A stretch of DNA of 64,000 nt from a virus (IMGVR_UViG_3300030101_002380:1-64000); one strand, 5' to 3'; shown: positions 1-57,861, numbered from the stretch's first letter. Made by a program: numbers and translations. Notes: generated by a model not told the origin, from the letters alone.

Positions 1-959
1 GCATCCTGATATTTGTTTTCCATTTGATCACCTATACCTGGACCTTTTCTACCATATGTAGCTCCAATACCTGTTTCTCTAAACTGATCTACATCAAAAT
101 CTTTTACTCTACCATACATATCCTTTCCACCAGCTCCCTCCTTCCTTCTTTGTTTATAGAAGTCCATCATACCTTCTTCTATAATCTCATCCTCAAACTC
201 TTTATTTGTTTTAAGATATTTTCCAGGATTATACATAGCTTTTAATCTATCCTTTGGATCATAAACCATATCCTGATCAGAAACATTTCTTACAGTATAT
301 TTCATATAATCCTCTTTACTACCTGGATCATAATATTGATCAGAACCAAAACTCTTTACACCTCTTTCAATAGCATCAGCTAATTCTAAAATTGGATTAT
401 CTCCTATACCAGAAAGTATAGTTGCTTGATCAGGATTTCTAAAACCTAAATCAGCTTGTTGAGCTTTTAATTGAGCTTTCTCAAGATCAGTTAGCTCATC
501 ATTTTCATCTATTGTTTTATCATCAATACCTTCATTAATATCAGTTTCATTATCTTTCCCTTCCTTATTCTCTTCTACTTCTTCATTATTCCCTTTTTGA
601 TTTTCTTCCTCTTCTTCACTTTCTGTTTTAGTATTATAACTACTTCCATTCCACATAAAAGTTTCTTGACCAGCATCTCTAGCTTGTCTAAAAGCTTGTC
701 TAAAAGTTAAACCTGTTGCAGAATCAACATTACCACTTTCTATTTTCCAATTACCTTGTGGATCTATATTAGCCATCTGAACATTACCATTTTCATCTGT
801 CCAATAAGCAGATCCATCTTCTATCACAGCATTATCTGGAATACCATCTCCATCAGAATCAGTTAAATCAACTTCACTAGATCCTTCATCACCTTGAAAT
901 ATAGGTAATGAACCACCACGCTTAGCTAGCATTAAATATGGGTTGGTAATAAAAAACAT
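1..959 (-). CDS. Putative virion cargo/ejection protein, 3'-truncated by the window edge
   Basis: Read manually (absent from ORF track because it has no stop in the window): ATG at 959, MFFITNPYLMLAKRGGSLPIFQGDEGSSEVDLTDSDGDGIPD...TFRQAFRQARDAGQETFMWNGSSYNT..., open to position 1; preceded by the late-promoter motif at 979-987. Confidence 0.75.
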   Translation of the reverse strand, partial: MFFITNPYLMLAKRGGSLPIFQGDEGSSEVDLTDSDGDGIPDNAVIEDGSAYWTDENGNVQMANIDPQGNWKIESGNVDSATGLTFRQAFRQARDAGQETFMWNGSSYNTKTESEEEEENQKGNNEEVEENKEGKDNETDINEGIDDKTIDENDELTDLEKAQLKAQQADLGFRNPDQATILSGIGDNPILELADAIERGVKSFGSDQYYDPGSKEDYMKYTVRNVSDQDMVYDPKDRLKAMYNPGKYLKTNKEFEDEIIEEGMMDFYKQRRKEGAGGKDMYGRVKDFDVDQFRETGIGATYGRKGPGIGDQMENKYQD

Positions 960-978
960 ATAATTACAGTTTACTTTA

Positions 979-987
979 ATAATATAC
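979..987 (-). promoter_or_regulatory. Putative late promoter motif GTATATTAT
   Basis: Exact copy of a 9-mer found in six intergenic gaps upstream of minus-strand operons. Confidence 0.6.
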
Positions 988-1006
988 TAAATAATCAGCA
1001 GATATG

Positions 1007-4000
1007 CTAATTATTTGATTGTTCATTCATTGCTTTTATTGTATCCAAAGTATTGCGTCCTGTTTCTTTGGAATCATTATAATACATTCTATTTAATTTA
1101 TCATACAATTTATTAGCAGATTTTTCTTGATTAGTATTTTTATATAAATCATTAACATAATCTTCATAAAATTGTACTTGCTTGTCTAAACCAAACTCAC
1201 CACCTCTTTTAAATTTTGGCCCCACTGGATAGGTATAAGAAGTACCATAAGTATTATAGTTTCCTTTAGTTATTACATTGTCATCAAAATCTTCTATATC
1301 AGATTCTATAAGTTTTACAAATTGCATATTCTTATTAACTAAATTTACATAGTTTTGTCTTGTTTGTTTACTTCCAGTAGGTCTCCATGTTAATGGTAAT
1401 CTATTAAAAATATCAAATCCTGGTGCATTTTTTTCTTCTGTAGGAATTTGAACTTGATATCTATTTGTTAATATTATCATTGTAGCAAGAGCAGATTTTT
1501 CATGATCCATTAATTCACTATTGTCAATTTTATACATATGATATTGAGTAGACATACCTTTTATAGGAACTCCATTTTCATCTCTTGGTAAAAAGACGCC
1601 ACCTTTATAACCATTATTTTCTGCTTTCTCTTTATCTTCTTTTGATAGTGTATTATAGTCTGGGTGATTTCTTACATCATCATAACCACCATTACTCCCA
1701 TTTAAAGGAATAGCAAAGTTAGTTCCAAACTTTTCATCTGCTTTAGCTAATAGCTCTCTTTCTCTAGGATCTGTAAAACCATAACCAACTCTAAGCTGTG
1801 TCCACCCTACACTTTGATCTGGATCATATGCATATCTATATTTACCTACAACAGAACCTGCACCATATTCTTTATCTGAAATAAATTGCATACCCCTTTT
1901 TCTACCTGCTAGAATAGCATCCTCTAAAGGATCATTTATATCACCCATACCACTTTCATTTCCATAAATGCCAAATGCAGTTAAAGCTATATTATTATAT
2001 AAATCACCATCTATATTTAATAAATCCATCAATGGTTTTTTATTTTTAGCTAAAGCATTTAAAAATGGTTTTGTGTTTTGATAATACTCATTACTTAAAT
2101 TATTTTCATTACCATCTGGAATACTAGAATTTTTATATGAATCTATATCAAATTCAAATTGTATAGGTCTGTAGTTTCCAAAATTTGTAGTAACATTGAT
2201 ACCTGGCCCTCCTTCTACAAACTCACCTTCATCTCCACCTTTACCTTCAAATCTTTTTGCATTTTTTACAGTTTTGTAATATCCTTCTTGTGCTCTCTCT
2301 TGATTTTCTTGTGATGTATAAAAATTTAATTTACCATTTTCATATACAAAAGAGCTACCTTCTTTCTCTGGTAATATGTATACCTCAGTACCTTCTCCTA
2401 TATCTGGATTGTCATATAAAGATTGTAGATCAACACACTTTCCATTTATACATCCAGTTGTTAATCTATTGTTTGTTCCAATACCATCATATAAATTTGA
2501 AGTCCTACCTCTTGTTACACCATGTATGGCAAGTGCTTGTTCTATTCCTGCATCACTTACTAAGTTAAATGATGGAACTAATGCACCTCTTGAATCTCCT
2601 CTATATTTTCTACCACCATCTGCATTAGCTGCAGATATTGTATACTTACCTGCACCTGTCATTCTATTACCACCATACTGATCAAAGCTTGCTTGTCTAT
2701 ATCCAGGAACATTTAATAATTCAGGAATAGTTTTAACACCATTATCTTTCATGTGCTCATTTAATTCATCTTGAGATAATTCTTTTCCATTATATGAATA
2801 TGTAGTTACAGTTTTTGTTGCTTGATCTCCTATCATTGTACCTAACAAAATATCATATGAATCTCTTGGTGCATCTTCTCCGGGATATAATAAATGCATT
2901 TTACCTTTTTGTTTATCAACAACTAAATATGGTTTAGATGCACTCTTTTTTATTTTTAATTTTTGACCTACCATAATATTATTTGGATTGTCAATATTAT
3001 TATTATAAGCAATTGAATTAGCTGTTACACCATCTCTATCTCCTGCAATTGAACTTAATGTATCACCTTGTTTAACTGTATAAGTTTCTGTACTAGATGA
3101 GGTGTCTCCATCATTCTTTGCATTAATAATGGTTTCATAATTATCATAAAGATTTATTTCATCCACTCTTTGTTTTTTTCCACCAACAGTGCTATATGTA
3201 CCATCTTCATTCCTTTCTCTAGTAACCCATACTTCATTTATTGGATTAAATTCATTTATAAAAATTGTATCTTCTGTAGTAACAGGTGACTTTGCAATCT
3301 TCTTCTGTCTTTCTGTACTTTCATTTTTAATATATTGTGCATGTTTAGGCATTATTAATTGATCACCAGGATAAATCCTGTTAATTTGATCACCTGTAAG
3401 ATTATTTAATTCTGCTACCTCAGCCAAACTTACAAAATACTTTGAAGCAATTTCACCTAGTGTATCACCTTTTTGAATTGTATATGATAAAACAGGTTCA
3501 TTAGACTCGGCTGCATTTTTAGATTTTTCATCAAAATATACAACCTCACCGGGATATATTGTTGATCTTCTATCTTTAAATTTTGGATTTAAAGCTATAA
3601 TTTCATCTACACTTTTACCATTATCACTTGCAATCTTTCCTAGATAATCTCCTTGCTGTATTGTATATGGTTCAATAGATCCTCCTGTCTGCATTACCAC
3701 AGGTTGTATCAAACCTCTATCCATTAGTTCTTTCCTAACTATACCAGATATTTCTTTACCTTCATTATATAGTTTTAATTGTTGTTTTAATCTACGTAAT
3801 TTTTTACCTATTTCACCACCCAGTTTTAGACCAAGTAATCCCTTATTAAATTTTTCTATATATTCTATTGGTGTTTTGTTTGTTTGATTTACATCATCCC
3901 CATATAAATGTGGAAATACATCAGCTAATGATTTACCATCTCTTATATGATTGCCAATATATTTTCTTGTTCCTTGTCTTCCTAACATGTTTGATAAAGC

Positions 4001-7000
4001 AGCAATCTCTAACTTAGACATACCATGTTCTACATCACTATACTCATTGTATATATCAGTACCATTTTTAATTAAACCAGGAACACCTTCTATTAAACCA
4101 TTAGCTCTATCTTTAAATATCTTTTTTTGATAGTCTAGATCTTCAGAAAAATCCTCTCTAGTACCATCATACATATTTTCAATCTCACTCCACAACTGTC
4201 CATATAAACCTGTAGCTGTAGATTCAGGATTTAACATTAACTCTCCATTCAAACTTTCTGCATATCTAATACCTTTTTCAAGATCTTCAAACTTAACCTC
4301 ATCACCATCTTGTGCTTGAAATAATGCACCACCAGTTCTTCTTTGTGATTGAGGTATATATTCATCAGATTGTCTTCTTGATTGAGGTACATAACCAGTT
4401 CCTGCAACTTCATTAGCAGTAGGTGTACTAACGTCTAGCGTAGGTGGAAGCGGTTGTGGTGGTAATTGTGTATTAGTTGTATTACCTAATAGACTATCAA
4501 TATTACTAACTGTTCTTTTAGGGATTGTTATAGTAGATTGTGGATCTACTAAGAATGGATTTTCTTCTTCTTCTTCAATTTGTGGTATCTCAATCATACC
4601 TCCAGATATTGGATCAATATTACCAAAAGGATCCATATAGTTTTCTCTCTCTATTCTTCTTGATTCTTTATCTGTAAAAGAAGTGTCTACGCCTTGTAAT
4701 TGTGGATAGTTTGGTTGATCCATTTGCCCACTTAATTCAATAAGCTTATTTAAACCAGCTTCATTAATATAACCTTTCATAGACTGTCCTGATGGACCTT
4801 GACCAGGGGTATCATAAGTATATGCACCACTGTTCATAATATTATCTGGATTATAATTTACAAACATAGTTTTACCAGATTTCCTTCCACTAAGCATTGA
4901 TCTAAATTGTTCAGCAACCTTTGGATCTAGACCTCTAGTTCTTTCAATTCTTTTAGCCATATCCTCGTCAATTGCAATTTGACCCATAGGATTTCTTGAC
5001 ATTGACTTTATAGCATAATCAGGTAATGTTCCTAACCCTATTGTAGATCCAAATACATTAGGATTATTCTGTCTAAATTCTTGAAGTCTATAATAGTCAT
5101 CAGAGAATTGTGGGGGACGTTGAGTTTGAGGTATATATTCATTACCACTGTATTGACTTAATACTTGGTTTTGTTCATCAGGTGTTAAATCATTAAATCC
5201 TGGGTATCTATTCTTTATAAATTCTAAACCTGAAGAAGCTTTTGGTAATTCTTTACCATGTCTAGCTAACATACCATCACCACCTTGATCATCCATTGCT
5301 ATTTCATTAAAGTACATTTCCATTTTAGGAAGTACCTCATCTTTCTTTTCTTGAAATATTTCTTGTTGCTCATCAATTTTAGGTTTATAAAAATTATCTA
5401 TTTCTGTTTTTAAATTACCATAAATTGAATTTAGCACACCTGTAGCTCTTTCTTTTTTACGTTTATTTTTTCCATAATAATCATCTAGTAAATCATTATA
5501 AGATGAATATCTTCTCCTCTCTTTTAAATCTTGTTGGCTTAAATTAAATATATTATTAAAAGTATCTTGTGAAATAAATGGATCTATAACATCTTTATAC
5601 CTATCTCTACTAATAGTTGAAGATGTTATATTTTCTATATATCTTATAATATTGTTACTACCAGATTCATATTCACCTATTTTATCTTCATATTCTTCTT
5701 TTATATTATTTAAATCCATATAATTATTTGTAAGGCTATTATATCCCAATGAATTTAATTGGTACTCTGATGGACCACTTGGTAAAAATAGCCCGTCCCC
5801 ATAATTATAATGTTCTAGATCTTTACTTAACAGTTTATTTAAATGTTTTTCACTAAACTTTTCTTTTGTGTTATCCCAAATACCTTTATCATATAATGCT
5901 GCTTCAGTCTCTGCTTTAATAGAACTTATTTCTGCTGGCCTCATAGCCCACTCACCATATTCATTTTTAGATGTGTCAAAATAGTTTTCACCAAATAAAT
6001 TAACAAGCCAATTTTTATACCCTGGAGCTGGCTCTTGATCAAAAACATCATCTGGATCAGTATATAAATCAGCTAAAGGTTTAAATAATGGTGATCTCAT
6101 TGTATTATATGAATGTGCATATTCATGATCTGCTATATCCCGCCAGTCATCAGGTAGAATAACAGAATCTCCAAAAGTATTTTCAGACCAACCTGATCTT
6201 TTATTCCTAGCAATTTGAACAAAATATGGATATTGAGCAAGTTCTGGAATACCTGGACCATACATTTCAGTAGATCTCATTTGCATATACGGATTTGCTG
6301 GTATATATAATCCTCTATAACCCATATATTTTTCTATACCAAATGGCAACCCATAACCAACATTTGTATTTTGTGCTGACCTACTCATAAATGGATTTAT
6401 AAAAGGAGTCTGCGTATACCTTTTTTGATAACCTTCATATATATTATTATTAATTTGACCATGTGAAACATATGGAAATACAACATGAAAATCTGGGCCT
6501 GCTGCAGTAAAATCATATTGAGCATTTATTCTTTCTGTTAATTCATCTTCAGATAATTGTTCTCCTGTTATATTAAAGACTTGTTTAGCATATCTATCTC
6601 TAAATGGTTTTGACTGTAATTTTTTTAGAAGATATTGTTGTTCTTTAGACGTATCTATCTTTTCATAATTTTGAACTACAAAATCATAAATCTCATCAAG
6701 TGTGTAATCTATTCCCTGTGTATCTATAGCACCTGCTTTATTTATTGTAAACTTTGGTTCTTGAACTTCATTACCATCTTGAAATAGAGGAGGATAAGAA
6801 TGGAAGAGAAAAGGAGAAGGAAGTAAGTATGGAGGAGGAAGTAAGTTTCTAATTTTTCTAGTTGTTCTTTTTACTTTTGTATTAAATGATAATACATCAT
6901 CATATAAGTTTGCTAAATTAGTTCTCATTGGATTTAACTTACCATTAGCGTCATAAACTTCAAAGTCTTTCCCATTAAAACCTCCCTTTATAACATATCC

Positions 7001-7333
7001 CTCCATAAGATTATTTAAGATAGGATTATCATGTGATGGTAATTTATATCCTTCTTTTTCATATTGTTTATACTTAACCATAGCATCATTATATATAGAT
7101 TTCATTTGATCCATAAAACCTCCACCATCTTGTGCTAATGGAACTTCAAAGACAGAACTACCAGGAAATGTATAATTAGCACCCGGCATCATAACTCTAC
7201 TATTACCTAAGTTATCCATACCAAACACAGGAAAGTCTACACCTTCCATAGTTATATTACCTGATGGTATTACATTATAAGGATTATTTCTATCCTTACT
7301 ATTCCTTTTATATCCGTCTTTACTAAATTTCAT
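1007..7333 (-). CDS. Giant multidomain virion cargo protein: HExxH zincin-like, lysozyme/SLT-like, 3x LysM, L,D-transpeptidase-like, second lysozyme-like domain
   Basis: 2108 aa; HEYAH; RYAESLNG..NPESTATGLYGQ; YTIQQGDYLGKIA, YTIQKGDTLGEIA, YTVKQGDTLSSIA (LysM); LVVDKQKGKMHL..LAIHG..RLTTGCIN (YkuD-type H..[ST]xGC); GNESGMG..SVGWTQ; lies directly downstream of tail genes like crAss-like cargo genes. Confidence 0.8.
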   Translation of the reverse strand: MKFSKDGYKRNSKDRNNPYNVIPSGNITMEGVDFPVFGMDNLGNSRVMMPGANYTFPGSSVFEVPLAQDGGGFMDQMKSIYNDAMVKYKQYEKEGYKLPSHDNPILNNLMEGYVIKGGFNGKDFEVYDANGKLNPMRTNLANLYDDVLSFNTKVKRTTRKIRNLLPPPYLLPSPFLFHSYPPLFQDGNEVQEPKFTINKAGAIDTQGIDYTLDEIYDFVVQNYEKIDTSKEQQYLLKKLQSKPFRDRYAKQVFNITGEQLSEDELTERINAQYDFTAAGPDFHVVFPYVSHGQINNNIYEGYQKRYTQTPFINPFMSRSAQNTNVGYGLPFGIEKYMGYRGLYIPANPYMQMRSTEMYGPGIPELAQYPYFVQIARNKRSGWSENTFGDSVILPDDWRDIADHEYAHSYNTMRSPLFKPLADLYTDPDDVFDQEPAPGYKNWLVNLFGENYFDTSKNEYGEWAMRPAEISSIKAETEAALYDKGIWDNTKEKFSEKHLNKLLSKDLEHYNYGDGLFLPSGPSEYQLNSLGYNSLTNNYMDLNNIKEEYEDKIGEYESGSNNIIRYIENITSSTISRDRYKDVIDPFISQDTFNNIFNLSQQDLKERRRYSSYNDLLDDYYGKNKRKKERATGVLNSIYGNLKTEIDNFYKPKIDEQQEIFQEKKDEVLPKMEMYFNEIAMDDQGGDGMLARHGKELPKASSGLEFIKNRYPGFNDLTPDEQNQVLSQYSGNEYIPQTQRPPQFSDDYYRLQEFRQNNPNVFGSTIGLGTLPDYAIKSMSRNPMGQIAIDEDMAKRIERTRGLDPKVAEQFRSMLSGRKSGKTMFVNYNPDNIMNSGAYTYDTPGQGPSGQSMKGYINEAGLNKLIELSGQMDQPNYPQLQGVDTSFTDKESRRIERENYMDPFGNIDPISGGMIEIPQIEEEEENPFLVDPQSTITIPKRTVSNIDSLLGNTTNTQLPPQPLPPTLDVSTPTANEVAGTGYVPQSRRQSDEYIPQSQRRTGGALFQAQDGDEVKFEDLEKGIRYAESLNGELMLNPESTATGLYGQLWSEIENMYDGTREDFSEDLDYQKKIFKDRANGLIEGVPGLIKNGTDIYNEYSDVEHGMSKLEIAALSNMLGRQGTRKYIGNHIRDGKSLADVFPHLYGDDVNQTNKTPIEYIEKFNKGLLGLKLGGEIGKKLRRLKQQLKLYNEGKEISGIVRKELMDRGLIQPVVMQTGGSIEPYTIQQGDYLGKIASDNGKSVDEIIALNPKFKDRRSTIYPGEVVYFDEKSKNAAESNEPVLSYTIQKGDTLGEIASKYFVSLAEVAELNNLTGDQINRIYPGDQLIMPKHAQYIKNESTERQKKIAKSPVTTEDTIFINEFNPINEVWVTRERNEDGTYSTVGGKKQRVDEINLYDNYETIINAKNDGDTSSSTETYTVKQGDTLSSIAGDRDGVTANSIAYNNNIDNPNNIMVGQKLKIKKSASKPYLVVDKQKGKMHLLYPGEDAPRDSYDILLGTMIGDQATKTVTTYSYNGKELSQDELNEHMKDNGVKTIPELLNVPGYRQASFDQYGGNRMTGAGKYTISAANADGGRKYRGDSRGALVPSFNLVSDAGIEQALAIHGVTRGRTSNLYDGIGTNNRLTTGCINGKCVDLQSLYDNPDIGEGTEVYILPEKEGSSFVYENGKLNFYTSQENQERAQEGYYKTVKNAKRFEGKGGDEGEFVEGGPGINVTTNFGNYRPIQFEFDIDSYKNSSIPDGNENNLSNEYYQNTKPFLNALAKNKKPLMDLLNIDGDLYNNIALTAFGIYGNESGMGDINDPLEDAILAGRKRGMQFISDKEYGAGSVVGKYRYAYDPDQSVGWTQLRVGYGFTDPRERELLAKADEKFGTNFAIPLNGSNGGYDDVRNHPDYNTLSKEDKEKAENNGYKGGVFLPRDENGVPIKGMSTQYHMYKIDNSELMDHEKSALATMIILTNRYQVQIPTEEKNAPGFDIFNRLPLTWRPTGSKQTRQNYVNLVNKNMQFVKLIESDIEDFDDNVITKGNYNTYGTSYTYPVGPKFKRGGEFGLDKQVQFYEDYVNDLYKNTNQEKSANKLYDKLNRMYYNDSKETGRNTLDTIKAMNEQSNN

Positions 7334-10300
7334 TATCTAAATGATACATTAAGTTTACTATTGTTTAATTTTAATAACATCTTTCTGTTTCCAGAAACTC
7401 TCTTTCTTAGAATTACAGCATTCCAGTAATGTCTAAACTTCTTACGTTGGAATAATGGTTTTGCTAAGTTTATATTAGCTTGATTTAACTCTCTAATATA
7501 ACCGTTCAATTGTGTTATAAATATTGGCTCACTTGTATTAGGATTAAATTCTCCTCTATCAGCAGTAACATCCCAAAACATATTAAATCTATATTTCTGT
7601 TCTTCTTTACTATATAGTATTTGAATATCATTAGGTGTCACAACTGGGAACTGAGTTATCAATGGTGCATTATTTTTAGGACTCAAATTTAATGATAATA
7701 ATCCAGATACTTGCTCTGTATTATGAAGTATTGCTTCATCAAAATTATAATCAAGATCATGGAATCTATCACCACAATCATTCTCTAAGTTACCTCTATA
7801 GATATAAGACTCTAACTGATACTCAATACTTCTAACAGTATTAACAACTTGACCTACAGATTCTATAAGTTCTACCTCCCATGGATAATCTATATTGTAA
7901 TAATTTGCAAATAAATCACATCTAGCATTGTGTTTCCAAATAGCTCCTAATTCATTTTGTGCTGGCACAGCAGTTAGTAAAGGAGTGCACTCAGTATACA
8001 TACATGTAATATCAAATGTATTTGGGTCAAGGAATGAAGTATTATCATCAAATTCTTTAATACAGTCACCTGGTGAAGCTGGCGGATAATTATTAGATGG
8101 ATCATTAAATACCATATCTGTACCTTCTGGACAAGCACAAGATCTTGTTGAATCTTCTGATAGTGGTATAGTTAAACCATCTACACATAAATACTTGCTT
8201 ACATTTACATCATTAGCTGGACTACCATATTCTGTGCCAGCTAACTGTCTTGTAACTTGAATCTTAAAAAAGATATATTCCCAAGATTGAGTAGCTGTAA
8301 ATTCATAATCATATACTACCCATTGATCTATATTAGTAACGTCTGGAGATCTCCATAAAAGTTCAGATGCACCTAAAGTATCAGCTCCATCATAACCAAA
8401 TTGACTACCTCTATAGTTTTGACCTTGAAATCCAGGAGGCTCAGATCCACCCCATATTTCTAATGTAGGGGCAAAGTTTGTAAATGATGCTGTGCTAGGA
8501 TGACTACTAGCTTGTGCTAATGCAACAGAACCTACTAATAGTGTATTAGGGGCTAATGAATTTGGTGAACCATTTCCATTTACAAGCAGTTGCCATACAC
8601 CCTCTTGGTAGTATGTAGGATTAGCACCCTGTCCATCAAAACCACCTAGACCATTACAACCAGAATCAGGATCTCCTGATTGAAGCATTCCTATAAAAGC
8701 ATCTCCTTCATATGGTTGTATTGAGTTAACAGGTGGTAAATTAGTTGGACATGTATCAGGTGACATGACTCCATTAACAAGATCACTTTGATTCTGACAC
8801 AAATAACCATTATTCCAAGGGCTTGGTGTCTGGGACCATCCATAATTATCACCTTGTTGTAAGTTAAATCCTGGATTAGCAAATTGAGATGTACCAAAAC
8901 CTACCACAGGTTCAGTGTCAGTTGCAATAATTGGATCTATAAAACCTACAAAACAACATTGCTCAACACCATTAACTATCTGTGGTGTAGACCCTGGTGG
9001 GCATCCTGGTGGATCACATTGATCTGTTATTGGATTATATGTATAACCTGGTGGACAATAAGGTGTATCTAATGTAATATTTTTTGTTGTAAAGAAATGA
9101 TTCAAACTTGGTATTGTTAAATCAGGATGCCAATCATGAAATGATATCCATGCTCTTGCTTTAGGATCATAACTTACCGTCCATGATACATCTTTAAAAT
9201 ATTGTTCATCTGATAATTCAATAGGTACTGTAGCATCAAAAAATGTAACTGGCTCATATACTTCACAACGGCATTCATAATCATTTACACTATTTCCTGT
9301 AGTTCCTGGTAACTGTGTTAATCCTGGATTACATGGATTAAGTACTGTTCCAGGATCACAAAAATATTCAGGTATATCAAAAATAAATTCATCTGCAATA
9401 ATATCTGCTACCTGTGCACCTTGACCAGGCCCAGCAGAAAATGCATTATTCATAGTTTGAACCATACATCCTACTACATTTTGTGGTGCATTAGCAATAT
9501 TAGGAACATTAGCTGCTGTGCATTGTACTATATATGTTTCTACTCCTTGATTCCATACATCATTTTGAATATTTGTTGTACATCCAAAACAATTTGCGCC
9601 AGTACAAGCACTACCACCACTGTCTGCATCAGTTAACACAATCATAATTCTTCTATAACCTGCTTGTCCTGATCTATCACCTAAACTTGAACCTCCAAAA
9701 TTATCTAATATTGCCATACCTTGGATAATAGCATCATCATATTCATCTCCAGCACCATCTAGAACTGGTTGACCAAAGCCAAACGTTGGTCCATTATTAG
9801 TTGTTATAGAATTTAATAATGTTGAGTCAGTAGTCATAGGTGCCACAGTACCTCTTGATCCTGGAGGACCACTACAATTTCCACAAGCAGCAGTAAATGG
9901 ATCAGCTGTCCATACTCCTAATCCAATTTGAACAGAGTTTTGAGCAGTAGGATTATTAGTTAAACTACCATTTAGTAGAGAATCAATTTGTTGTACAAAC
10001 TGTGTAGCAAATGCATTTCCTGTTTGATGACCTTGTGTGCCGGCTCCAGCTGTTGATCCATTACTACCTGACAAATCTAAAACAATAGCAATATCAATTG
10101 GATTATAACCTGGTACAATACGCTCTGAAGCATCAAAAATTTCTATTTTTTCACACTCTTGTCCTACAGGATTTGAAGGATCATATGTGTATCCATTAGG
10201 ACAACATGGTACAGGAGGAGTTCCATTACACTGAGTTAAGTTATATACAAAACCATTACATGCATCAAAATTTATGCAATCTGGGTTTAATGCTTCATAA

Positions 10301-13300
10301 TCTTTTTTACAAAAATATACTAAGTCATAGTTAGGATCATATACAGATTGACATCCTATACCTGCAACAGGATTGTCATAAAGATTAGGACAATCTTCTA
10401 TTTCAGGATATTGACTTAATAATCTAGAAGGTAAGTATTTATTAAACCATTGCTTCATACCATTATTTGCAATATTCTCCAAACCTTTACCCCCATAATT
10501 AAATATTTTTCCTTGAGCTTGTGATATATAATATAATCCAGAAGGTGTATTTATAACACTTCTAGAACTTTCACATGATCCATACTCATGTGCTTCATCT
10601 GCATTAACAACATTTTGCATTGGTTGACTAAATAGTCCTCCGTCACCAATAGTAAGTTTTGTTCCAAGATCTGTTTTTAGTTGATCTACCCCTTGGAATA
10701 ATGCTGGAGCTAAATTAGGGAATGTAACAAAAGCACCACTCTTTGATATGGGTTTTATTACATTTACTATATTCTTAAAGTCTTTAAAATTCATTGGTAA
10801 GAAGACTCTCCAAAAATCTTTCTTAGCTTCCTTCTGTGCCTGTAATGAATATATTAATCTTTTGGGATAATGCGTGAAACAAGTATCTGCTACAAGCGGA
10901 TCATAATCTCTATCTTGAATTTGACCAAAAGAAATAAGTTGTGTATTAAATCTTGATTTACTTAATGAATAATCATACTTGTAAAAATTATCTTTTCTAA
11001 TAATACTAGAATGATACATAGCTTCAAGATCAGTGTAGTCTACAAAATCATAATGTCTTTTTTCATCTACATCTTCATGATCTCTTAATCCCATGTTTAA
11101 TGTTGACTCTACAAAAAAGTCTTGTGTACCATTACAATGAGTATACATGTATCCATTCTTAACAAGGAATAAACTTCTTGTCTTTTTATCATTAGTAATA
11201 CCATCTGCAGTTAATGCAACACTTTGTGCATCACTATAATCATTATTTGTTTCATTAGGTCCACCAGATCCACTTACACCACCACCTCCAGCAGAACCTC
11301 CACTTCCTGCAACATCATCATTAATAGAATCATCATCAGGTCTATCTAAATAATGTAAATTATTAGGTGTTATAGCTGTCATATCATCATTATTACCTGT
11401 AATAAAAGCAAAACTTGTAATATACCTTACCAACTCTGAAAGATCATATTTAGCAGTATTCATCCAATATTTTGGGCGTGGAACATTAGATCTTAATCTA
11501 TAATCAAATGCAAAACCATCTGGTTGACCAGATAAGAAATCCCAGAAGAAAGGCATAATAACTTTTTCTGTATATCTGTTTATATAACAATCACCTCCAT
11601 AAACTATTCTTGTTTGAAACTCTGCATCACCTACATCTGTTACAGAAAGATCAAATTTAAATTCTCCTGTTTCTTCATCCTTTTCTATATACTCTTGTGT
11701 AAAATAATTAATACAACCTACTGGTATTTGTTTTATCTGATCTAATTGACCATATTGATTTTTAAATGCAACTTTTAATGCAGTATAATGTGCAGCTATA
11801 TCTGCTACTCTCCATTGTGAAGGATTAAACCACCCACCAAAAGTACCAATTTTAAATCTAGAATTGTCCTCAGCACCACTAGGTAATCTAAAACCTAATC
11901 CACCTGGAGGAGCTATACTTGAAACAGCAACTGTAGATGGTCTTTGGAGATTATTAATTCTTATTTCTGCAGTTAGATTCTGAATACTAGGTCCAACATA
12001 TCTTGCCTTATCTACTAACATTCTAAATATATCACCATCAACAGGAGCATTTGTATTTAAATAAAGCCCATGACCACTATACTTATACGCATAATCTTGA
12101 AAGCTAACAAGTTCATATATCATATCAATAATATGCTGACCACCTTCAGAAGTCAATTGCATAAAATTAAATATACCAAATAGTGCCTGTGTTATAGAAG
12201 GTGCTTCTGTAAATCTACCACCTTGATATGTTATTTCTTCACCTGCACCTATATACCCTCTATTAGTTTTTCTAGCTTCATTTGTTAAATTACCCATTTG
12301 TGTAAGGGTTGTAGAATCATAACCAAAACCAGGAGCTTGTTGCCATAGTTTTGGTCCCCCAAGTACTGTCGCTGTTGAGTAAAGACCACCTCTAACTGGT
12401 TCAGAAGTTGCATTTAATGGGTTGAAAGGATTAAAAACATTTTCATTTTGATATGATCTACCAGTAGCGGAACCACTATTCCCCATAAAATGAGCATTAA
12501 CATTCAATGCTTTAGGTGGTTGATTAGCATTAATACCTTGAGGAAAGCCATCTACTTGACCTTCAACACCTAATACATTATCAGTATCATAAGGTGCTAC
12601 ACCTTCATTACCTTCTTGCTGTGTATTGACAGCATACATATAATTAGTATTTGCTAATTGAGCAGGTCCTAAAGCAATTGGATAATCTACTGGAGTGGGA
12701 GTTGAAGTTCCAACATTGGCACCAAGTGCTCCACCAAATGCCCATGGTAATCCAACAGGATTTGCCTTTCTTCCGCCATCTCTTTCATTTGATGTATAAC
12801 CAATACTTAAACCTTTTGGTTTAACTTGTTTCTGCATTTTTTTACCACGCATCTCACCAATAGCATAACCTATACCTACCATGATACCAACCCACATAGC
12901 TAAGTTTCTTAATAGTTTAGCACGTGGATGTTCTTCAGATGGTCTAAATCTTCCTATAGATTTACCCGTGGTCATTCCATATGTTTTTACTTCAAATGGA
13001 GATAAGAATGGTTTATTAAATGATGTTTCTGGTGAGTGAAATGTAAATATAGTATCTGATGTTCCAGCAAGACCTTCTGGATACACATTTACATTTGTTG
13101 GGTTATTATAATTAAATGAAAAGCCAGAATTACTTGTTAAGAATACTTCCTCCTGCGCACTATTAAAAGGATAGTTAGGAATAAAACCTGCATCTACTGT
13201 ACTATCTGCACGTCCTTGTGCATTATCAGGTATATCATACTTCCTCATATTTCTTGATATACCTTTTGCTATAATAGATTTATTACCCTCTCTTGATCCT

Positions 13301-15066
13301 ACAAGAATTTCATATCCTACAATCCCTGGTATAATGGGACCTGTTGGCCTACCTTCGTCAGGTGTGCATAACTCACCCTCACTCTCACTAAATCTAGGCA
13401 TCTTGATATTTTCAAACTTTACACCAAGAACATTTATACTATGACCACTGTCAGAAGCTCTATCTAAAAATCCTCCAGGACCTGATGCTTCAAATGTTTC
13501 ATCTGGCATTTTATGATGTCTGATATACTTTCCACATAAATCAAATCTATCATCCCCATCATTTGTATTATATCTAACAGGATCTTGAGGATACTTTTCT
13601 GTAGATTGCCAATATGCCATATGACCTTCAGCAATAACTTCACCACAATCATCTGTTATTTTATCTCCTTCTACTAGACCCATTGGATCAGTTCCAAATT
13701 GTTGTGATTGATTTGATGCAGTATTATATATTTCAAATACTCTATCTGAACCCTCTGTATCACATAATCCATTTGCTGATGCTTGAGCAGTTAAATCATT
13801 TGAATCACCTGGTAAGTTATCTAATTCATCTAAAATATTTCCATTGGGAGCTCTCCATCCATTCCAAGATAAAGGTCTACCCGGTATATGATATGATCTA
13901 GATTTATCTCCAGTATTATAAACAAATCTAATAAAAAATGCATAAACCTCATCTCTCATAAATGTAGGTTTATTACCTCCTTTCTTGTAGTAATCAGAAG
14001 GAAATTTTGTAACTGTCCAGTGCGTATGTATTCTGTTAGCTATAGGTTGATAATTAAAATCATATTTTTCTGTAGGTCCTTGTCTTATTAGATAATCATT
14101 AACTACATACATCTTATCTGATCTATCAAACACAGGTGTTGTTAATGGTATAGTATTTAAAGGAACCGCCTTTAATGCCTGATTTATAAAATCAATACTA
14201 ATATGAGATTGCTCGGTACTGTATATACCCATCTCTTTAGCTTGTATTTCTCCTTGATTATGACTTAAAATTACTAATTGAAAATGTTCAAAGTTTTTAT
14301 CTAAACCAGATATTTCAATTTCTAAACCAGATAATAAATCTTCATGATCAAATAATGGCTGAATATTAGACATACCATAATAATCACCAATCTTTTGATC
14401 ATTTATTACATATGAAATAAAAGCTTGATATGATCCATTTCTTAATTGACCACCATCATTAGATCTTGAAAGTTTTATACATGGTATATCAACCAGTGGT
14501 GCTAATCTTAATTTTTCACAATCTACACATTCTGTAGTTTCATATTCTATACACTCAGCACCTGGTGGAGATATGACATTTTGTATATAAGGTATATCAT
14601 CTAAGTTTAATGTTCTAGAAGGATTTATACCATCATCCCAATATACTTGCCATGTACAATCAAAATTTTCTTTTGCTGCACCAGTAATTAAATTACTAGT
14701 ATTAAAGTTTAAACAATCACCCCCACATTGTTGATCATTATATACTGTCTCATATAGACATTGACTATCATCCCATGTACCTATTTCACTTTGAGTATTG
14801 TTAGTTGAGTAGATAACCCATTTATCACCATATAAATGTATTGTACCTATTATAGTATAAGGTGCACCACTACATATAATATTTGCAGGTTCATTACCTA
14901 AAGTTCCAACATCACCATCTTTAGAATTATTAATAGCGTTAATGGCATGAGTATAGTTCTCTTTACCCACTAAGGCTGTATTCAAATCCTTAGTCATTCC
15001 TTTAATAGGAATTCTAGTATCTGTAGAACTAGTATTTTGTAATTTAGGGGTTTGCTTCTTAGCCAT
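7333..15066 (-). CDS. Tail stabilization/nozzle (muzzle-like) protein with inserted vWA and beta-sandwich domains
   Basis: 2577 aa; follows ring/tubular genes as in crAss-like phages; scaffold-type motif SWTVSYD..WISFHDW; vWA MIDAS DIAIVLDLSGS..IVLTD; CPxGY Cys modules. Confidence 0.7.
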   Translation of the reverse strand: MAKKQTPKLQNTSSTDTRIPIKGMTKDLNTALVGKENYTHAINAINNSKDGDVGTLGNEPANIICSGAPYTIIGTIHLYGDKWVIYSTNNTQSEIGTWDDSQCLYETVYNDQQCGGDCLNFNTSNLITGAAKENFDCTWQVYWDDGINPSRTLNLDDIPYIQNVISPPGAECIEYETTECVDCEKLRLAPLVDIPCIKLSRSNDGGQLRNGSYQAFISYVINDQKIGDYYGMSNIQPLFDHEDLLSGLEIEISGLDKNFEHFQLVILSHNQGEIQAKEMGIYSTEQSHISIDFINQALKAVPLNTIPLTTPVFDRSDKMYVVNDYLIRQGPTEKYDFNYQPIANRIHTHWTVTKFPSDYYKKGGNKPTFMRDEVYAFFIRFVYNTGDKSRSYHIPGRPLSWNGWRAPNGNILDELDNLPGDSNDLTAQASANGLCDTEGSDRVFEIYNTASNQSQQFGTDPMGLVEGDKITDDCGEVIAEGHMAYWQSTEKYPQDPVRYNTNDGDDRFDLCGKYIRHHKMPDETFEASGPGGFLDRASDSGHSINVLGVKFENIKMPRFSESEGELCTPDEGRPTGPIIPGIVGYEILVGSREGNKSIIAKGISRNMRKYDIPDNAQGRADSTVDAGFIPNYPFNSAQEEVFLTSNSGFSFNYNNPTNVNVYPEGLAGTSDTIFTFHSPETSFNKPFLSPFEVKTYGMTTGKSIGRFRPSEEHPRAKLLRNLAMWVGIMVGIGYAIGEMRGKKMQKQVKPKGLSIGYTSNERDGGRKANPVGLPWAFGGALGANVGTSTPTPVDYPIALGPAQLANTNYMYAVNTQQEGNEGVAPYDTDNVLGVEGQVDGFPQGINANQPPKALNVNAHFMGNSGSATGRSYQNENVFNPFNPLNATSEPVRGGLYSTATVLGGPKLWQQAPGFGYDSTTLTQMGNLTNEARKTNRGYIGAGEEITYQGGRFTEAPSITQALFGIFNFMQLTSEGGQHIIDMIYELVSFQDYAYKYSGHGLYLNTNAPVDGDIFRMLVDKARYVGPSIQNLTAEIRINNLQRPSTVAVSSIAPPGGLGFRLPSGAEDNSRFKIGTFGGWFNPSQWRVADIAAHYTALKVAFKNQYGQLDQIKQIPVGCINYFTQEYIEKDEETGEFKFDLSVTDVGDAEFQTRIVYGGDCYINRYTEKVIMPFFWDFLSGQPDGFAFDYRLRSNVPRPKYWMNTAKYDLSELVRYITSFAFITGNNDDMTAITPNNLHYLDRPDDDSINDDVAGSGGSAGGGGVSGSGGPNETNNDYSDAQSVALTADGITNDKKTRSLFLVKNGYMYTHCNGTQDFFVESTLNMGLRDHEDVDEKRHYDFVDYTDLEAMYHSSIIRKDNFYKYDYSLSKSRFNTQLISFGQIQDRDYDPLVADTCFTHYPKRLIYSLQAQKEAKKDFWRVFLPMNFKDFKNIVNVIKPISKSGAFVTFPNLAPALFQGVDQLKTDLGTKLTIGDGGLFSQPMQNVVNADEAHEYGSCESSRSVINTPSGLYYISQAQGKIFNYGGKGLENIANNGMKQWFNKYLPSRLLSQYPEIEDCPNLYDNPVAGIGCQSVYDPNYDLVYFCKKDYEALNPDCINFDACNGFVYNLTQCNGTPPVPCCPNGYTYDPSNPVGQECEKIEIFDASERIVPGYNPIDIAIVLDLSGSNGSTAGAGTQGHQTGNAFATQFVQQIDSLLNGSLTNNPTAQNSVQIGLGVWTADPFTAACGNCSGPPGSRGTVAPMTTDSTLLNSITTNNGPTFGFGQPVLDGAGDEYDDAIIQGMAILDNFGGSSLGDRSGQAGYRRIMIVLTDADSGGSACTGANCFGCTTNIQNDVWNQGVETYIVQCTAANVPNIANAPQNVVGCMVQTMNNAFSAGPGQGAQVADIIADEFIFDIPEYFCDPGTVLNPCNPGLTQLPGTTGNSVNDYECRCEVYEPVTFFDATVPIELSDEQYFKDVSWTVSYDPKARAWISFHDWHPDLTIPSLNHFFTTKNITLDTPYCPPGYTYNPITDQCDPPGCPPGSTPQIVNGVEQCCFVGFIDPIIATDTEPVVGFGTSQFANPGFNLQQGDNYGWSQTPSPWNNGYLCQNQSDLVNGVMSPDTCPTNLPPVNSIQPYEGDAFIGMLQSGDPDSGCNGLGGFDGQGANPTYYQEGVWQLLVNGNGSPNSLAPNTLLVGSVALAQASSHPSTASFTNFAPTLEIWGGSEPPGFQGQNYRGSQFGYDGADTLGASELLWRSPDVTNIDQWVVYDYEFTATQSWEYIFFKIQVTRQLAGTEYGSPANDVNVSKYLCVDGLTIPLSEDSTRSCACPEGTDMVFNDPSNNYPPASPGDCIKEFDDNTSFLDPNTFDITCMYTECTPLLTAVPAQNELGAIWKHNARCDLFANYYNIDYPWEVELIESVGQVVNTVRSIEYQLESYIYRGNLENDCGDRFHDLDYNFDEAILHNTEQVSGLLSLNLSPKNNAPLITQFPVVTPNDIQILYSKEEQKYRFNMFWDVTADRGEFNPNTSEPIFITQLNGYIRELNQANINLAKPLFQRKKFRHYWNAVILRKRVSGNRKMLLKLNNSKLNVSFR

Positions 15067-31002: not shown

Positions 31003-33774
31003 TTATTCTTTGTCCTTATCTTTTGTTTTTGGAGATTTTTGAACATCATACTTGTTCTTATTTTCTCTAGCTATTTCAAGATTTGTTGCTGCAATATCAC
31101 GTTGAGCTTGTAATTTTTGTCTATCAATATCCATTTTTGCTTGATTCATAGAATCTCTTCTAATTGCCTCATCTCTTTTAAAGTCCATTTGCTCTCTATA
31201 CTGTTCTCTCTTTTCCATATCTTGCATTGCATCACGGAAATCACTTTGCTGATTTTGATCAATATCAGTTTGTGCTCCATAACCTGCTGCTCTAATTTCT
31301 GCAACCATGAGATCTTTTCTACGTTCAGCATCATTCTCAGACTTCTGGAACTCACGCTCAGCAGCTTTTTCTTGAGCTTGAGCTTGTAATTGCTGTTGTT
31401 GCATTTGCTGTTGTTGTTGCTGTTCTTGCTGTCTTTGAGCTTGTTGTTTCATTTCAGCACCTTTAAGGATATTAGAAACTTCAGAAATTGAATCAGCCTT
31501 AACAATACTACCAAGATCAAAGATACTTGCTCCAGATGTATTATTAGTCATAGCTAATTGTTTAAGTTGATCTAGTATAGATCTATGATTTGTTCTTGTT
31601 GTACAGAAAATATTAAAGTCTCTCATTAATAACTCTGTACCGTTTATTTGAAAGTTTACTTTTTCTGCCTCACTAGAAATATAATTTAATCTAACACTTG
31701 GTATTTTACTATGGTAGTATTGTGATAGATCTGTTCTCATTTGATGTACCCTTGGCATAAGATTATCAGAGTGCTGTATAAAATACATCTCTGTTTGAGC
31801 GTATGATTGATTCATAGCTTGTGTTACACCTGTTGCTGTTTGTTGTGCAACTGGTGCTCCTAATCTCTGTGGATTAACACCTATTGCATCAAATGCTTGT
31901 TGTTTAAAGTGATTTGCTAATTGTATTCTTGACATTAATCTGCCTGATTGTTCAAGATTTAATGTCTGGTAATGATTAAAGTTTGTAGCATTCTCTGTAT
32001 TTGTTATAGAAGTATCTAATGGTAACATACCAAAGTCCTTCATTGCTACATATGCTTTTGCCATATTGTTCTTACCCCAGTCTTCACCCATAGAGTGACG
32101 TGGTAATGCATTTTGATCAAACATAATTACTGTACCTAACTCATCTACTAGTATATCAGCAATCTGATTATTAACCATATTATACCCTACTTGATATGGT
32201 TTCATTAAATCTACTAAAGAAGTAGATCTTGTATTTCTATCTGAGAATACTCTACCTTCAATAGGTAGCTTACAACCATAAAGATTATTATCACCTTTAA
32301 ATTGAAACTGTACTCTTCCTGGTTTCTTTTTATTAATACCTAGATATATAGGATCAAAGTCTGATGACATCTCTGTTCTCCATGAGTGAGGCATATTTCT
32401 ACCAATCTTAACTCCACCCCAAACTTCATTAATCCAAATCCAATCTACATGCTCTCCTTCTATCAGATTATCTTTTGTTTTCTCTTTAAACAGTTGTGTA
32501 TTATATTCTGGTTTATGTGATTCTTTCCAGTTCTCATCAATTATTAATTGCTCAACTTCACCATCAGGCATAACTCTAGTTAAATGTCCCACCTTTCTTT
32601 GAGTCTTCCAATAAATTGTAGATACTCTTAAAAGATCAGTATTACCATATGAAGCAAGATCCTCACCTTCACCTAAGATCTGTGATACAATATCACCACC
32701 TCCACCTGGAAACTTATTCCAATTACTCATAAATTGTCTGTACCCTAATGAAGGAGAATTAGTATTCCATTTATGTGACTTTGTAGGATCATAGAATGAA
32801 CCATCATTCTGTACAGCTTGATTCATATATATAGCTGATTTAGCCGGATGAATAGACTCTAATGATTCTAATTGTTTCTTAGACATCAAGTATCCATAAT
32901 TATCTATAACATCAGAGATAGTCATCATTTCACATTTACCTGCATAGTTAGAATCAGATATATATCTTGTGTCTGGAGACTTTTGGTAAAAAGTAAGAAC
33001 AGGATTCCATAGCTCACACTCATAATCATCTTCCATCATTTTAAAATGCCAGAACTCTCTATCACATATAAGCATATCACGGAAACCTCTTTCCTCTAAT
33101 TCTTGCATTTTAAATCTTTCTTCATCAACTCTAAGCTGATGAGTAGCCCATTCCTCTACTAAACTTCTATAGTCTTTTTGAAAAAACTCTTCTATTTCAG
33201 GAAGTGATTTTAATTTTTCTGGTGCTAATTCAGCTTGTGCCTCTTCACCCATTGGATCCATTCCCGCCTCAATAAGTCTTTGTTGTACTTGTACTGCAGC
33301 ATCAGTTAATAGATTCTCCTCAATCATAGATCTTTTTTGCTCCATCATTTCATTATATGATAGATCATCTACTGCTCTAAATTGGACCTTGGAAAATCTT
33401 TTAGAAAATTCTCCTGAGAGAACGTTAATTACGTTTGGGATTATAGGATAGAATTTTAACTCTAATGCAGAGTTATCCTCTTCAGTTAATACATCCATTA
33501 ACTCAGAGTATTCATTGTTCTCTTCTACAATGTAATCAGTCTTATCTATAATACCTTTAGCTAATTTATAATTCTTAAGAAGCTTTCTTGCATTTTTTCT
33601 TAAGAACTCCATACCTTGCTCTTCTAACCAATCTAAATTCCATGCTGCCCAATCATTTGTTTTGCGTTTAGCAGATAAAAATTGAACAGGTTGTGTTAAG
33701 CTTGATGTAGCTGGATACTTAGATTCTTTGGCTTTAGCACCATTTTTTAATTGAAGAGCGTTAAATACTTTCAT
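31003..33774 (-). CDS. Portal protein
   Basis: 923 aa downstream of terminase; FYPIIPNVINVLSGE, SLVDLMKPYQ..YN, GVNPQRLG, Gln-rich coiled-coil C-terminal barrel. Confidence 0.85.
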   Translation of the reverse strand: MKVFNALQLKNGAKAKESKYPATSSLTQPVQFLSAKRKTNDWAAWNLDWLEEQGMEFLRKNARKLLKNYKLAKGIIDKTDYIVEENNEYSELMDVLTEEDNSALELKFYPIIPNVINVLSGEFSKRFSKVQFRAVDDLSYNEMMEQKRSMIEENLLTDAAVQVQQRLIEAGMDPMGEEAQAELAPEKLKSLPEIEEFFQKDYRSLVEEWATHQLRVDEERFKMQELEERGFRDMLICDREFWHFKMMEDDYECELWNPVLTFYQKSPDTRYISDSNYAGKCEMMTISDVIDNYGYLMSKKQLESLESIHPAKSAIYMNQAVQNDGSFYDPTKSHKWNTNSPSLGYRQFMSNWNKFPGGGGDIVSQILGEGEDLASYGNTDLLRVSTIYWKTQRKVGHLTRVMPDGEVEQLIIDENWKESHKPEYNTQLFKEKTKDNLIEGEHVDWIWINEVWGGVKIGRNMPHSWRTEMSSDFDPIYLGINKKKPGRVQFQFKGDNNLYGCKLPIEGRVFSDRNTRSTSLVDLMKPYQVGYNMVNNQIADILVDELGTVIMFDQNALPRHSMGEDWGKNNMAKAYVAMKDFGMLPLDTSITNTENATNFNHYQTLNLEQSGRLMSRIQLANHFKQQAFDAIGVNPQRLGAPVAQQTATGVTQAMNQSYAQTEMYFIQHSDNLMPRVHQMRTDLSQYYHSKIPSVRLNYISSEAEKVNFQINGTELLMRDFNIFCTTRTNHRSILDQLKQLAMTNNTSGASIFDLGSIVKADSISEVSNILKGAEMKQQAQRQQEQQQQQQMQQQQLQAQAQEKAAEREFQKSENDAERRKDLMVAEIRAAGYGAQTDIDQNQQSDFRDAMQDMEKREQYREQMDFKRDEAIRRDSMNQAKMDIDRQKLQAQRDIAATNLEIARENKNKYDVQKSPKTKDKDKE

Positions 33775-40655: not shown

Positions 40656-40919
40656 TTAACATTTCCATTTTTTTCTTGCAAGACACGCTCTTTTCTTAGG
40701 AGTCTTTCTGCAGTCAATATTAAACTTCTTAATTTGACCTAAATTTCTAGCACAAAAGGATCTTTTACGTGGTCCTCCTCCAGGCTGTGGTGCCTTAAGT
40801 TTAGAACCAGTCTTTCTATTAATCATCCTACGCCCTTTAGCAGTAAGACCACCTGACTTGCTTTTACAACCATTCTTGATTGAACAGCCTTTCATTCCTC
40901 CTTTTTTCTTGCTAGCCAT
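40656..40919 (-). CDS. Small basic Cys-containing protein (GGLTAKGR..RSFCAR family, DUF6321-like)
   Basis: 87 aa, very K/R-rich; motif recalled from marine phage proteins, not searched. Confidence 0.65.
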   Translation of the reverse strand: MASKKKGGMKGCSIKNGCKSKSGGLTAKGRRMINRKTGSKLKAPQPGGGPRKRSFCARNLGQIKKFNIDCRKTPKKRACLARKKWKC

Positions 40920-41176
40920 TACTTTCCAACTTTTTTCTGTGCCATCTTATGTGATGCGCTAAATGATGCACCATTTTTCATTGCATCAACCATCATTTGC
41001 ATATGCTTTTTACTGTGATGTACTGAGTGTTTTTTAAGTGTTTTTTGTTGTCTCATTGTTAATGCACATACATCAACACCTTTAACTTTTCCTATACACT
41101 TTTCTCCTCCCTTTTGCATTTTCTTTTTAGGTGGTCTACCTACTGTAGATCCATATGTCCCTTTACCTTGTGGCAT
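40919..41176 (-). CDS. Small basic His-rich protein
   Basis: 85 aa; KKHSVHHSKKHM..SFSASHK; coupled to the next gene. Confidence 0.65.
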   Translation of the reverse strand: MPQGKGTYGSTVGRPPKKKMQKGGEKCIGKVKGVDVCALTMRQQKTLKKHSVHHSKKHMQMMVDAMKNGASFSASHKMAQKKVGK

Positions 41177-41201
41177 AATTTTAAATTTTAATTTGTTAAT
41201 A

Positions 41202-57857: not shown

Positions 57858-57861
57858 AATT

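Follow-up and report, generated by a model that had tools for sequence, protein, structure and literature searches.

A recurrent peptide tag at the module joints of cargo-type proteins in a marine crassvirus

How crassviruses select, store and release several megadaltons of injected protein is a standing question, and the only crassvirus structure, that of crAss001, resolves short docked segments of the cargo (PMC10172136). Here we describe a peptide tag that gives an experimental handle on this question. It is found in the viral contig IMGVR_UViG_3300030101_002380, whose first 64,000 nucleotides (positions 1-64000) are hereafter called the window, and in particular in P0001, a 2108-aa modular protein that is most likely packaged cargo. 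A reading made from the sequence alone had noticed short strings in P0001 and the next gene, summarized as K/R-x-G-G / [AFM]-Q-x-G, and had suggested that they bound the domains of a modular cargo protein with plugged-in enzymes and serve as protease sites or as sorting tags. The checks that it named included restriction within the proteome, position in AlphaFold models and conservation in homologues. All of its strings are present on the minus strand where it had placed them, including MQKGG in an 85-aa basic protein. Do these strings represent one motif, where does the motif stand, and what could read it?

When 5.8 billion proteins were searched, P0001 and 50 relatives (P0003-P0052) were recovered, 51 matches that all came from marine metagenomes. 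At their joints the relatives have a much sharper form of the peptide, such as QQGGSLPKAQNG or KRKGGELPKAQFG. The family motif is [KRQ]-x-G-G-S-L-P-K-A-Q-x-G, optionally followed by -x-E, so that the tag measures 10-13 residues. The strict pattern GG.[LI]P.[AF]Q.G matched 54 times in 50 homologues and not once in shuffled copies. The logo of 207 distinct instances reads [KFAY]-[KQR]-[YDNQ]-G-G-S-L-P-K-A-Q-x-G-x-[EGD] with seven near-invariant positions: for each of G, L, P, A, Q and G the conservation is 87-96%, for the second glycine of GG it is 84%, and in the flanks it vanishes within two residues. The tag is kept among homologues down to less than 40% identity. Since hmmsearch with a 24-column hidden Markov model of the motif missed P0001's own copies, this model was replaced by a weight matrix built from 52 homologue instances. 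The three bipartite copies of the sequence-only reading proved real with this matrix, scoring 21.3, 17.8 and 15.7 bits against 6.8 for the best of 200 shuffles of the protein (mean -4.7). The shorter strings of P0001 are halves of the tag, PLAQDGG and PLFQDG being the second half and MQTGGS, LKLGGE and FKRGGE the first. Thus a recurring motif exists, but its original consensus was too loose and the true motif is longer and sharper. In the cargo set, muzzle gene included, the loose halves are weakly enriched (14 vs 6.2 ± 2.6 expected for [KR].GG, 9 vs 5.1 ± 2.2 for [AFM]Q.G), and both are near expectation in the rest of the genome. Because of this weak enrichment, the short copies count through their position alone, that is, at breaks between alignment blocks and in stretches with a predicted local distance difference test (pLDDT) below 50.

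The tag is also restricted in its distribution. A six-frame scan of the whole genome found it solely in P0001 and in genes of 1255 and 1571 aa, and all seven strong matches in a related 87.7-kb contig (G001) lie in three open reading frames (ORFs) after its muzzle-type gene; in both genomes, therefore, the tag is limited to three genes that follow the muzzle gene. A degenerate DNA pattern for GG[ST]LPKAQxG gave 63 matches in IMG/VR, all in ORFs of 157-2689 aa and mostly of at least several hundred aa, with Ser in 57 of the 63 and Leu in nearly all at the degenerate positions. Applied to 596 Gb of bacterial and archaeal genomes, this pattern gave 24 matches, against about 35 expected from base composition; these have random residues at the degenerate positions and lie nearly all in short frames. 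Thus the tag is at chance level in cellular genomes and is confined to viruses and to cargo genes. The codons at P, K, A, Q and G of the tag match the background usage of the same ORFs, which argues that selection acts on the peptide and not on the DNA. As a separate observation, TCA encodes the Ser of the tag in 39 of the 51 instances that have a Ser, where 14 are expected (IMG/VR loci L003-L059); this bias could come from common descent of the copies or from a local translational or nucleotide constraint. The tag is absent from crAss001 gp45-gp50 (best matrix score 1.1) and from a 50-kb late/cargo stretch of phi14:2, so it belongs to one aquatic branch, and we rejected the idea that it is a general trait of crassviruses. 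Our literature search found no published description of a junction tag in crassvirus cargo proteins: GGSLPKAQ occurs in none of the papers searched, and the occurrences of LPKAQ are unrelated.

With regard to position, the tags stand at module joints (Table 1). The BLAST map of P0001 breaks into blocks at residues 1-66/73, 63-166, 182/185-~700, 999/1012-1209, 1210-2026 and 2037-2102, and these breaks coincide with the strings first noticed. Over all pairs of homologues, whose endpoints are mutually dependent, 12.2% of internal block ends lie within 5 aa of a full tag, compared with 1.3% of random positions (about ninefold). In AlphaFold models of residues 171-720 and 980-2108 (mean pLDDT 66 and 69), every modelled copy lies in, or directly beside, a stretch with pLDDT below 50 between confident domains. 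Successive tags have a median spacing of 337 aa. Moreover, the N-terminus of the protein encoded by the next gene (P0002) lies, together with its tag, inside a 2572-aa ORF of another phage (L001/L055), which indicates that gene fusion and fission occur at the tag. Restriction, position and conservation, three of the checks proposed beforehand, came out in favor of the motif, and a modular cargo string with exchangeable enzymes and a shared peptide at its joints is well supported by the block breaks, fusion and fission, restriction to cargo genes, disordered linkers and conservation taken together.

Table 1. Features of the window, with positions counted from its first letter; residues are those of P0001
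Feature	Position (nt)	Strand	Residues	Observation
Muzzle-type protein, 2577 aa, no tag	7333..15066	-		N-terminus matches PF25731 crAss_MUZ (3e-26); no weight-matrix match
P0001, modular cargo-type protein, 2108 aa	1007..7333	-		Single ORF, immediately after the muzzle-type gene
Constant N-terminal domain	7142..7333	-	1-64	60-99% identity among proteins with otherwise unalignable bodies
Half tag PLAQDGGG, ends N-terminal domain	7118..7141	-	65-72	P-[LM]-A-Q-x-G consensus of N-domain ends
Degenerate tag PLFQDG, ahead of HExxH module	6773..6790	-	182-187	BLAST blocks begin at 182-185; pLDDT<50
HExxH (zincin-like) module; HEYAH at 6113-6127	5267..6772	-	188-689	HExxH invariant in homologues
Full but degenerate tag ARHGKELPKASSG	5228..5266	-	690-702	Weight matrix 17.8 bits; pLDDT ~27-30
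Low-complexity spacer	4343..5227	-	703-997	Unconserved among homologues; low AlphaFold confidence at 980-997, the modelled part
Full tag RRTGGALFQAQDG	4304..4342	-	998-1010	Weight matrix 21.3 bits; pLDDT<50 over 980-1011
Helical module with invariant E-S, plus helical tail starting at LKLGG	3707..4303	-		Exchangeable block 1011-1209; E47/S48 invariant in alignment A2
LKLGG	3815..3829	-	1169-1173	Inside pLDDT<50 loop, 1168-1180
Half tag MQTGG, ahead of first LysM	3680..3694	-	1214-1218	Block break 1209/1210; pLDDT<50 over 1209-1221
Three LysM repeats, YkuD L,D-transpeptidase and further helical domain; one unit, no internal tag	1214..3679	-		
Half tag FKRGG, ahead of C-tail	1199..1213	-	2041-2045	Block 2037-2102 travels alone; G-G-E-F invariant
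Constant helical C-tail	1010..1198	-	2046-2108	In 14 IMG/VR loci; four predicted helices
Next cargo gene (P0002), leader and tag AKRGGSLPIFQG at 891-926	3..959	-		Weight matrix 15.7 bits; homologues begin alike
85-aa basic protein with KKKMQKGGE, uncertain member	40919..41176	-		Single short match, indistinguishable from chance

The degenerate joints of P0001 are clearer in its homologues, which read YGGSLFQAQDG or AQGG at the PLFQDG joint, YGAELPKAQDG at the ARHGKELPKASSG joint and MQKGG or MRTGG at the MQTGG joint. The conserved C-terminal half of all homologues begins at residues 999-1012 of P0001, at the best-scoring tag. The linker just ahead of FKRGG (residues 2028-2040) has pLDDT below 50, and in the protein P0181 a full tag stands before the same C-tail.

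The modules between the joints were identified to different degrees. LysM (Pfam, 1.7e-32) and YkuD (8.6e-4, sub-sequence query) were also matched by Foldseek to LysM and YkuD structures; Pfam searches with eight sub-segments of P0001 gave nothing apart from these two, a general Pfam scan matched no cargo family to P0001, and the phage protein collection contained no close relative of the 2108-aa protein, only LysM matches. The module boundaries drawn from sequence thus hold, together with LysM and YkuD, while the zincin fold and two lysozyme-like modules drawn with them were not confirmed by profile or fold searches. For the HExxH module, Pfam gave no zincin match at E<=1 (sub-sequence query), Foldseek and VIA-align with the model of residues 171-720 returned only long-helix look-alikes, and an Atlas search gave weak leads to LPD23 and SprT-like proteins (score 0.83). 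The MPTase-PolyVal profile did not match P0001. In alignment A3 of 20 homologues, H233, E234, A236, H237, S238, Y239, N240 and T241 are invariant within the string HEYAHSYNT. The helical E-S module is possibly a lytic transglycosylase, judging from a short motif with no profile match. We regard the zincin and the two lysozyme-like assignments as candidates, given by the short motifs HEYAH and E-S.

The two ends of the string form a constant chassis. No part of P0001 is more conserved than its first 66 residues, and HMMER over 1.84 billion representatives found this N-domain in 3111 clusters at E<=1e-3; among the best 150 matches it occupies nearly always residues 1-100, in proteins of 67-2805 aa. 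In 98 distinct ends of the N-domain the sequence is P-[LM]-A(86%)-Q(92%)-x-G(99%)-x-E(55%), followed by immediate divergence, so that a constant N-domain precedes unrelated bodies right after A-Q-x-G, which is the layout of polymorphic effectors. The G-x-E after A-Q in 55% of these ends resembles the S/A/G-x-E site of the phiKZ group. The shared helical C-tail starts at [KR]-x-G-G-E-F. Between the two ends, the variable modules comprise at least eight HExxH types, LysM and YkuD, and in relatives also the ADP-ribosyltransferase ART-PolyVal (in P0034 and P0042), SLT and SET; ART-PolyVal and SLT occur on one chain. In P0028, a SET-domain match (PF00856, 3.6e-9) at residues 38-81 takes the usual place of the constant N-domain.

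The assignment of P0001 to the cargo came from its genomic context. The minus-strand block encodes major capsid, ring 1, ring 2, portal and large terminase (TerL) families of crassviruses, which together with the muzzle family identify the contig as a crassvirus. The start of P0001 abuts the end of the muzzle-type gene at 7333, in the same order as in crAss001 and in IMG/VR loci. As the genes that follow the crAss001 muzzle gene are packaged cargo, P0001 and its neighbors would be cargo genes by position. In addition, the N-domain is 38% identical to the start of gp040 of Cellulophaga phage phi4:1, annotated as a virion protein from tandem mass spectrometry (MS/MS), and this gp040 has four copies of [FY]-Q-x-G-G. 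The closest cultured phages are phi4:1 and phi17:2 (gp040/gp041) of Cellulophaga and Leptolyngbya phage Lbo-JY46. From the synteny with crAss001 gp45/gp46 and the mass-spectrometric detection of this N-domain relative, we consider that P0001 and the two following genes most likely encode packaged and ejected cargo strings of a marine crassvirus.

The contig measures 113,624 nt, and positions 1-100 of the window recur nearly identically at 113525-113624. The assembly is therefore a circularly permuted genome of about 113.5 kb, in which the gene at 3-959 (minus strand) crosses the ends. This gene is the second cargo gene, P0002; it reaches 1255 aa after the ends are joined, and is followed downstream by ORFs of 1571, 1188 and more than 2453 aa. 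At genome positions 87230-102385 (minus strand), partly covered by locus L002, a frame of 5052 aa runs without a stop; it contains one HEAFH and is probably a fused RNA-polymerase-type cargo giant; its last 2453 aa had no Pfam or PHROG match. The portal (31003-33774, minus strand) has its closest cultured relative in Leptolyngbya phage Lbo-JY46 (34% identity, 6e-108), with gut crassviruses at only 22-24% and phi14:2 also well behind Lbo-JY46; its match to the Cellulophaga phages phi4:1 and phi17:2 (Lightbulbvirus, outside Crassvirales) is 8e-56.

The tag is also found on proteins encoded separately from the strings. In these it follows a leader of 1-12 residues and lies among residues 5-25, as in MMKGGTLPKAQTG, MKKQLPKAQSG, MKIRIIGLPKAQIG (the start of XAI97384 from Leptolyngbya phage Lbo-JY46) and the N-terminus of the second cargo gene product, which is likewise conserved. 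Since N-terminal tags are kept on separate proteins, the tag has a function of its own, and a docking or sorting signal would account for these copies no less well than a cleavage site would. The MQKGG noted in the small basic protein of the window is present but inseparable from chance, though loci L038, L049 and L053 have in the syntenic place a basic protein of 256-281 aa with a hydrophobic, membrane-helix-like stretch and two to three full copies of the tag. Tiny basic proteins run over 40656-41581 of the window. Elsewhere in the genome, a 113-aa Gly/Met/Lys protein made of [YM]-G-M-G-G-S-[KR][KR] repeats (70215-70553, minus strand) and a 93-aa protein with EEGGS and YKTGGQ (71116-71394, minus strand) were seen, and the relatives have small proteins starting with MMKGGTLPKAQTG and MKKQLPKAQSG in the syntenic place.

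What reads the tag? We give a weak and tentative preference to a site-specific protease that cuts the string into its modules. The disordered linkers at the joints would expose a linear recognition peptide or a half of it (x-G-G, or P-x-A-Q-x-G), and the cut would most likely be late, in the filled head or after ejection, so that modules acting in the periplasm and in the cytoplasm could separate. The N-terminal copies on separate proteins would be the same recognition element, from which a short leader is removed. Cutting is favored since modules typical of the periplasm and of the cytoplasm are joined in a single chain. As expected of a polyprotein, the domain joints here have a short conserved peptide in common, and HExxH occurs 20 times in 52.7 thousand amino acids (kaa) of motif-bearing ORFs and is absent from 61.9 kaa of neighboring ORFs, which counts for cutting as well. 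Precedents point the same way: zincins were predicted to process polyvalent proteins (Iyer et al. 2017, PMC5512222), crAss polyproteins are expected to be cleaved (Drobysheva et al.), and head and ejection proteins of phiKZ and SPN3US are cut at a consensus site, mostly with removal of N-terminal propeptides of 20-254 aa (PMC10052503).

On the other hand, several observations weigh against a protease. Profiles of the S78 and ClpP prohead proteases found none in the 97%-complete genome; a search with the S77 (T4-type) profile also gave no match, but neither did its control. At least eight HExxH types, differing between genomes, face one invariant tag, and several motif-rich cargo proteins (P0019-P0024 and P0027) have no HExxH at all; this diversity and patchy presence weaken the case for a zincin in cis as the universal reader. 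The only conserved HExxH protein, an HExxH-vWA protein (56694-57857, plus strand) adjoining a MoxR-type ATPase (the pair spans 56694-59124), is present in 9 of 11 near-complete motif-bearing IMG/VR genomes at 52-97% identity (44-56% in two pieces in one genome). However, it is missing from two complete motif-bearing genomes, so it was rejected as a strictly required reader, and it is absent from phi14:2, crAss001, phi17:2 and Lbo-JY46. Moreover, the N-domain appears too conserved for a propeptide to be discarded, and the tag is retained after leaders of 1-12 residues, where cutting frees nothing. Finally, the crAss001 cargo gp45 was modelled as one chain spanning the portal with cleavage unreported, in a phage without the tag (PMC10172136). 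As a side observation on the HExxH-vWA gene, the IMG/VR contig behind L001/L055 (245,646 nt) has two copies of it separated by 120.8 kb, and the genes of L001 recur in L055; a genome of about 121 kb was apparently assembled there as a head-to-tail dimer.

A stronger form of the protease reading makes the tag an address label of plug-and-play cargo. In this form, a module would need only to stand behind [KRQ]xGG-SLPKAQ-xG on the N-domain chassis in order to be packaged, ejected and then released at the tag by a dedicated reader, which might be a co-ejected zincin, the HExxH-vWA/MoxR pair or a host enzyme. We regard this version as possible yet doubtful.

Alternatively, the tag may never be cut. 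It might be a docking or sorting tag that binds a conserved virion component (the inner capsid wall, portal, tail rings, muzzle, or the N-domain and C-tail), and brings modules into the cargo zone or keeps the chain ordered and in place until ejection, with the string intact in the particle; this is a serious rival, though a somewhat unlikely one. It would explain why the motif is kept at the extreme N-terminus of separate proteins (MMKGGTLPKAQTG, MKKQLPKAQSG and MKIRIIGLPKAQIG among them), why several copies occur in small basic proteins and why both ends of the string are conserved. The failure to find a cognate protease (S78 and ClpP absent, the S77 control failed, HExxH patchy) speaks for it too. 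In crAss001, short segments of gp45 are bound to portal and ring proteins, and the uncut chain passes through the portal; beside the muzzle protein lies a further cargo segment, unassigned but attributed to gp45 (PMC10172136). However, seven positions of the tag are nearly invariant though the portals are only 25-35% identical, and a co-evolving partner should permit drift. Placement at each joint is typical of polyprotein sites rather than of docking motifs, and crAss001 and phi14:2 make the same virion type without the tag.

Two further explanations are much weaker. A signal read after ejection by a conserved host factor, such as an envelope protease, a chaperone or a transport machine (the host is probably one of the Bacteroidota), is improbable. 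It would account for a tag that is near-invariant across divergent phages with no universal phage-encoded reader, and for modules typical of different compartments, but the chance level of the tag in 596 Gb of cellular genomes means that host proteins do not use it. To our knowledge it also resembles no host signal, neither Sec, Tat, lipobox, the T9SS CTD nor the sortase LPXTG, which we count against this idea. The x-G-G sites of adenain, ASFV and Ulp1, sortase LPXTG and the Q/K tags of transglutaminase would fit the positions of the tag poorly. Similarly unlikely is a passive joint, in which a flexible linker cassette with no specific partner would be passed on along with its modules and would persist since only crossovers in linkers give viable recombinants. 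Module shuffling with fusion and fission at the tag fits this idea, and the excess of TCA at its Ser (39 vs 14 expected) hints at common descent of the copies; yet conservation at 7 of 10 positions over 207 instances is not a property of natural linkers, and the tag persists at N-termini with nothing to link. Its variant, a DNA-level recombination site, was rejected since synonymous sites are free at five positions and the mean DNA identity between copies is too low.

The tag marks module joints in hundreds of cargo proteins. If it is a processing or addressing code, it explains how one chain delivers both cell-wall enzymes and cytoplasmic effectors, and it offers a natural route for loading foreign proteins into phage particles. 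If the plug-and-play version is true, marine crassviruses carry a MARTX-like effector polyprotein with a portable processing code; we know of no such code described for any phage cargo. In addition, the 3111-cluster family of polymorphic phage effectors should be a resource for mining anti-defence and cell-wall activities.

Among known systems, the polyvalent proteins (Iyer, Burroughs, Anand, de Souza, Aravind 2017, PMC5512222) are linked to the present family by the exchangeable modules, including ART-PolyVal, a domain specific to polyvalent proteins. Both are giant late-gene phage proteins that string together unrelated enzymatic domains; those of the polyvalent proteins include ART, which is shared, and zincin-type peptidases and lysozyme/transglycosylase, which have candidate counterparts here. 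P0001, with three LysM, YkuD and HExxH, falls within the two to fifteen unrelated domains per polypeptide described there, and it is likewise encoded among phage late/virion genes, namely in the crassvirus late block beside the muzzle gene. For polyvalent proteins, delivery together with the DNA and processing by the zincin that they carry were predicted (PMC5512222). On the other hand, that paper describes no junction peptide, does not use the word "linker" and mentions neither crAss nor Cellulophaga (PMC5512222), whereas the present family has a constant N-domain and C-tail and one invariant tag at its joints.

The crAss001 cargo proteins C1 (gp45) and C2 (gp46) are the positional counterparts, being encoded right after the muzzle gene and ahead of the RNA-polymerase-type giants (Bayfield et al. 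2023, PMC10172136). Both are packaged, and they are believed to leave through the tail in a partly unfolded state (PMC10172136). In contrast to P0001, they are much smaller and enzyme modules are unreported there (PMC10172136, our source for their domains in place of a scan), and BLASTP with gp45, the one of the two that was compared, gave no significant sequence similarity to P0001 or the second cargo gene (E>=0.5).

Maturation of T4, phiKZ and SPN3US shares with the present system virion-internal proteins that carry a common short site, often near the N-terminus and sometimes repeated; in those phages the site governs maturation (PMC10052503, PMC7411985). Those sites have 3-4 residues and are cut by a dedicated prohead serine protease, whereas the tag here has 10-13 residues and its cleavage is only predicted. 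In the bacterial CdiA (VENN), Rhs (PxxxxDPxGL) and MARTX (CPD sites) systems, a constant delivery head carries swappable effectors with a short peptide at the exchange point, which in several of them is tied to processing; these are secretion systems and not phage particles. Unlike their strings, the present system has several joints per chain with the same tag, and it has no immunity genes.

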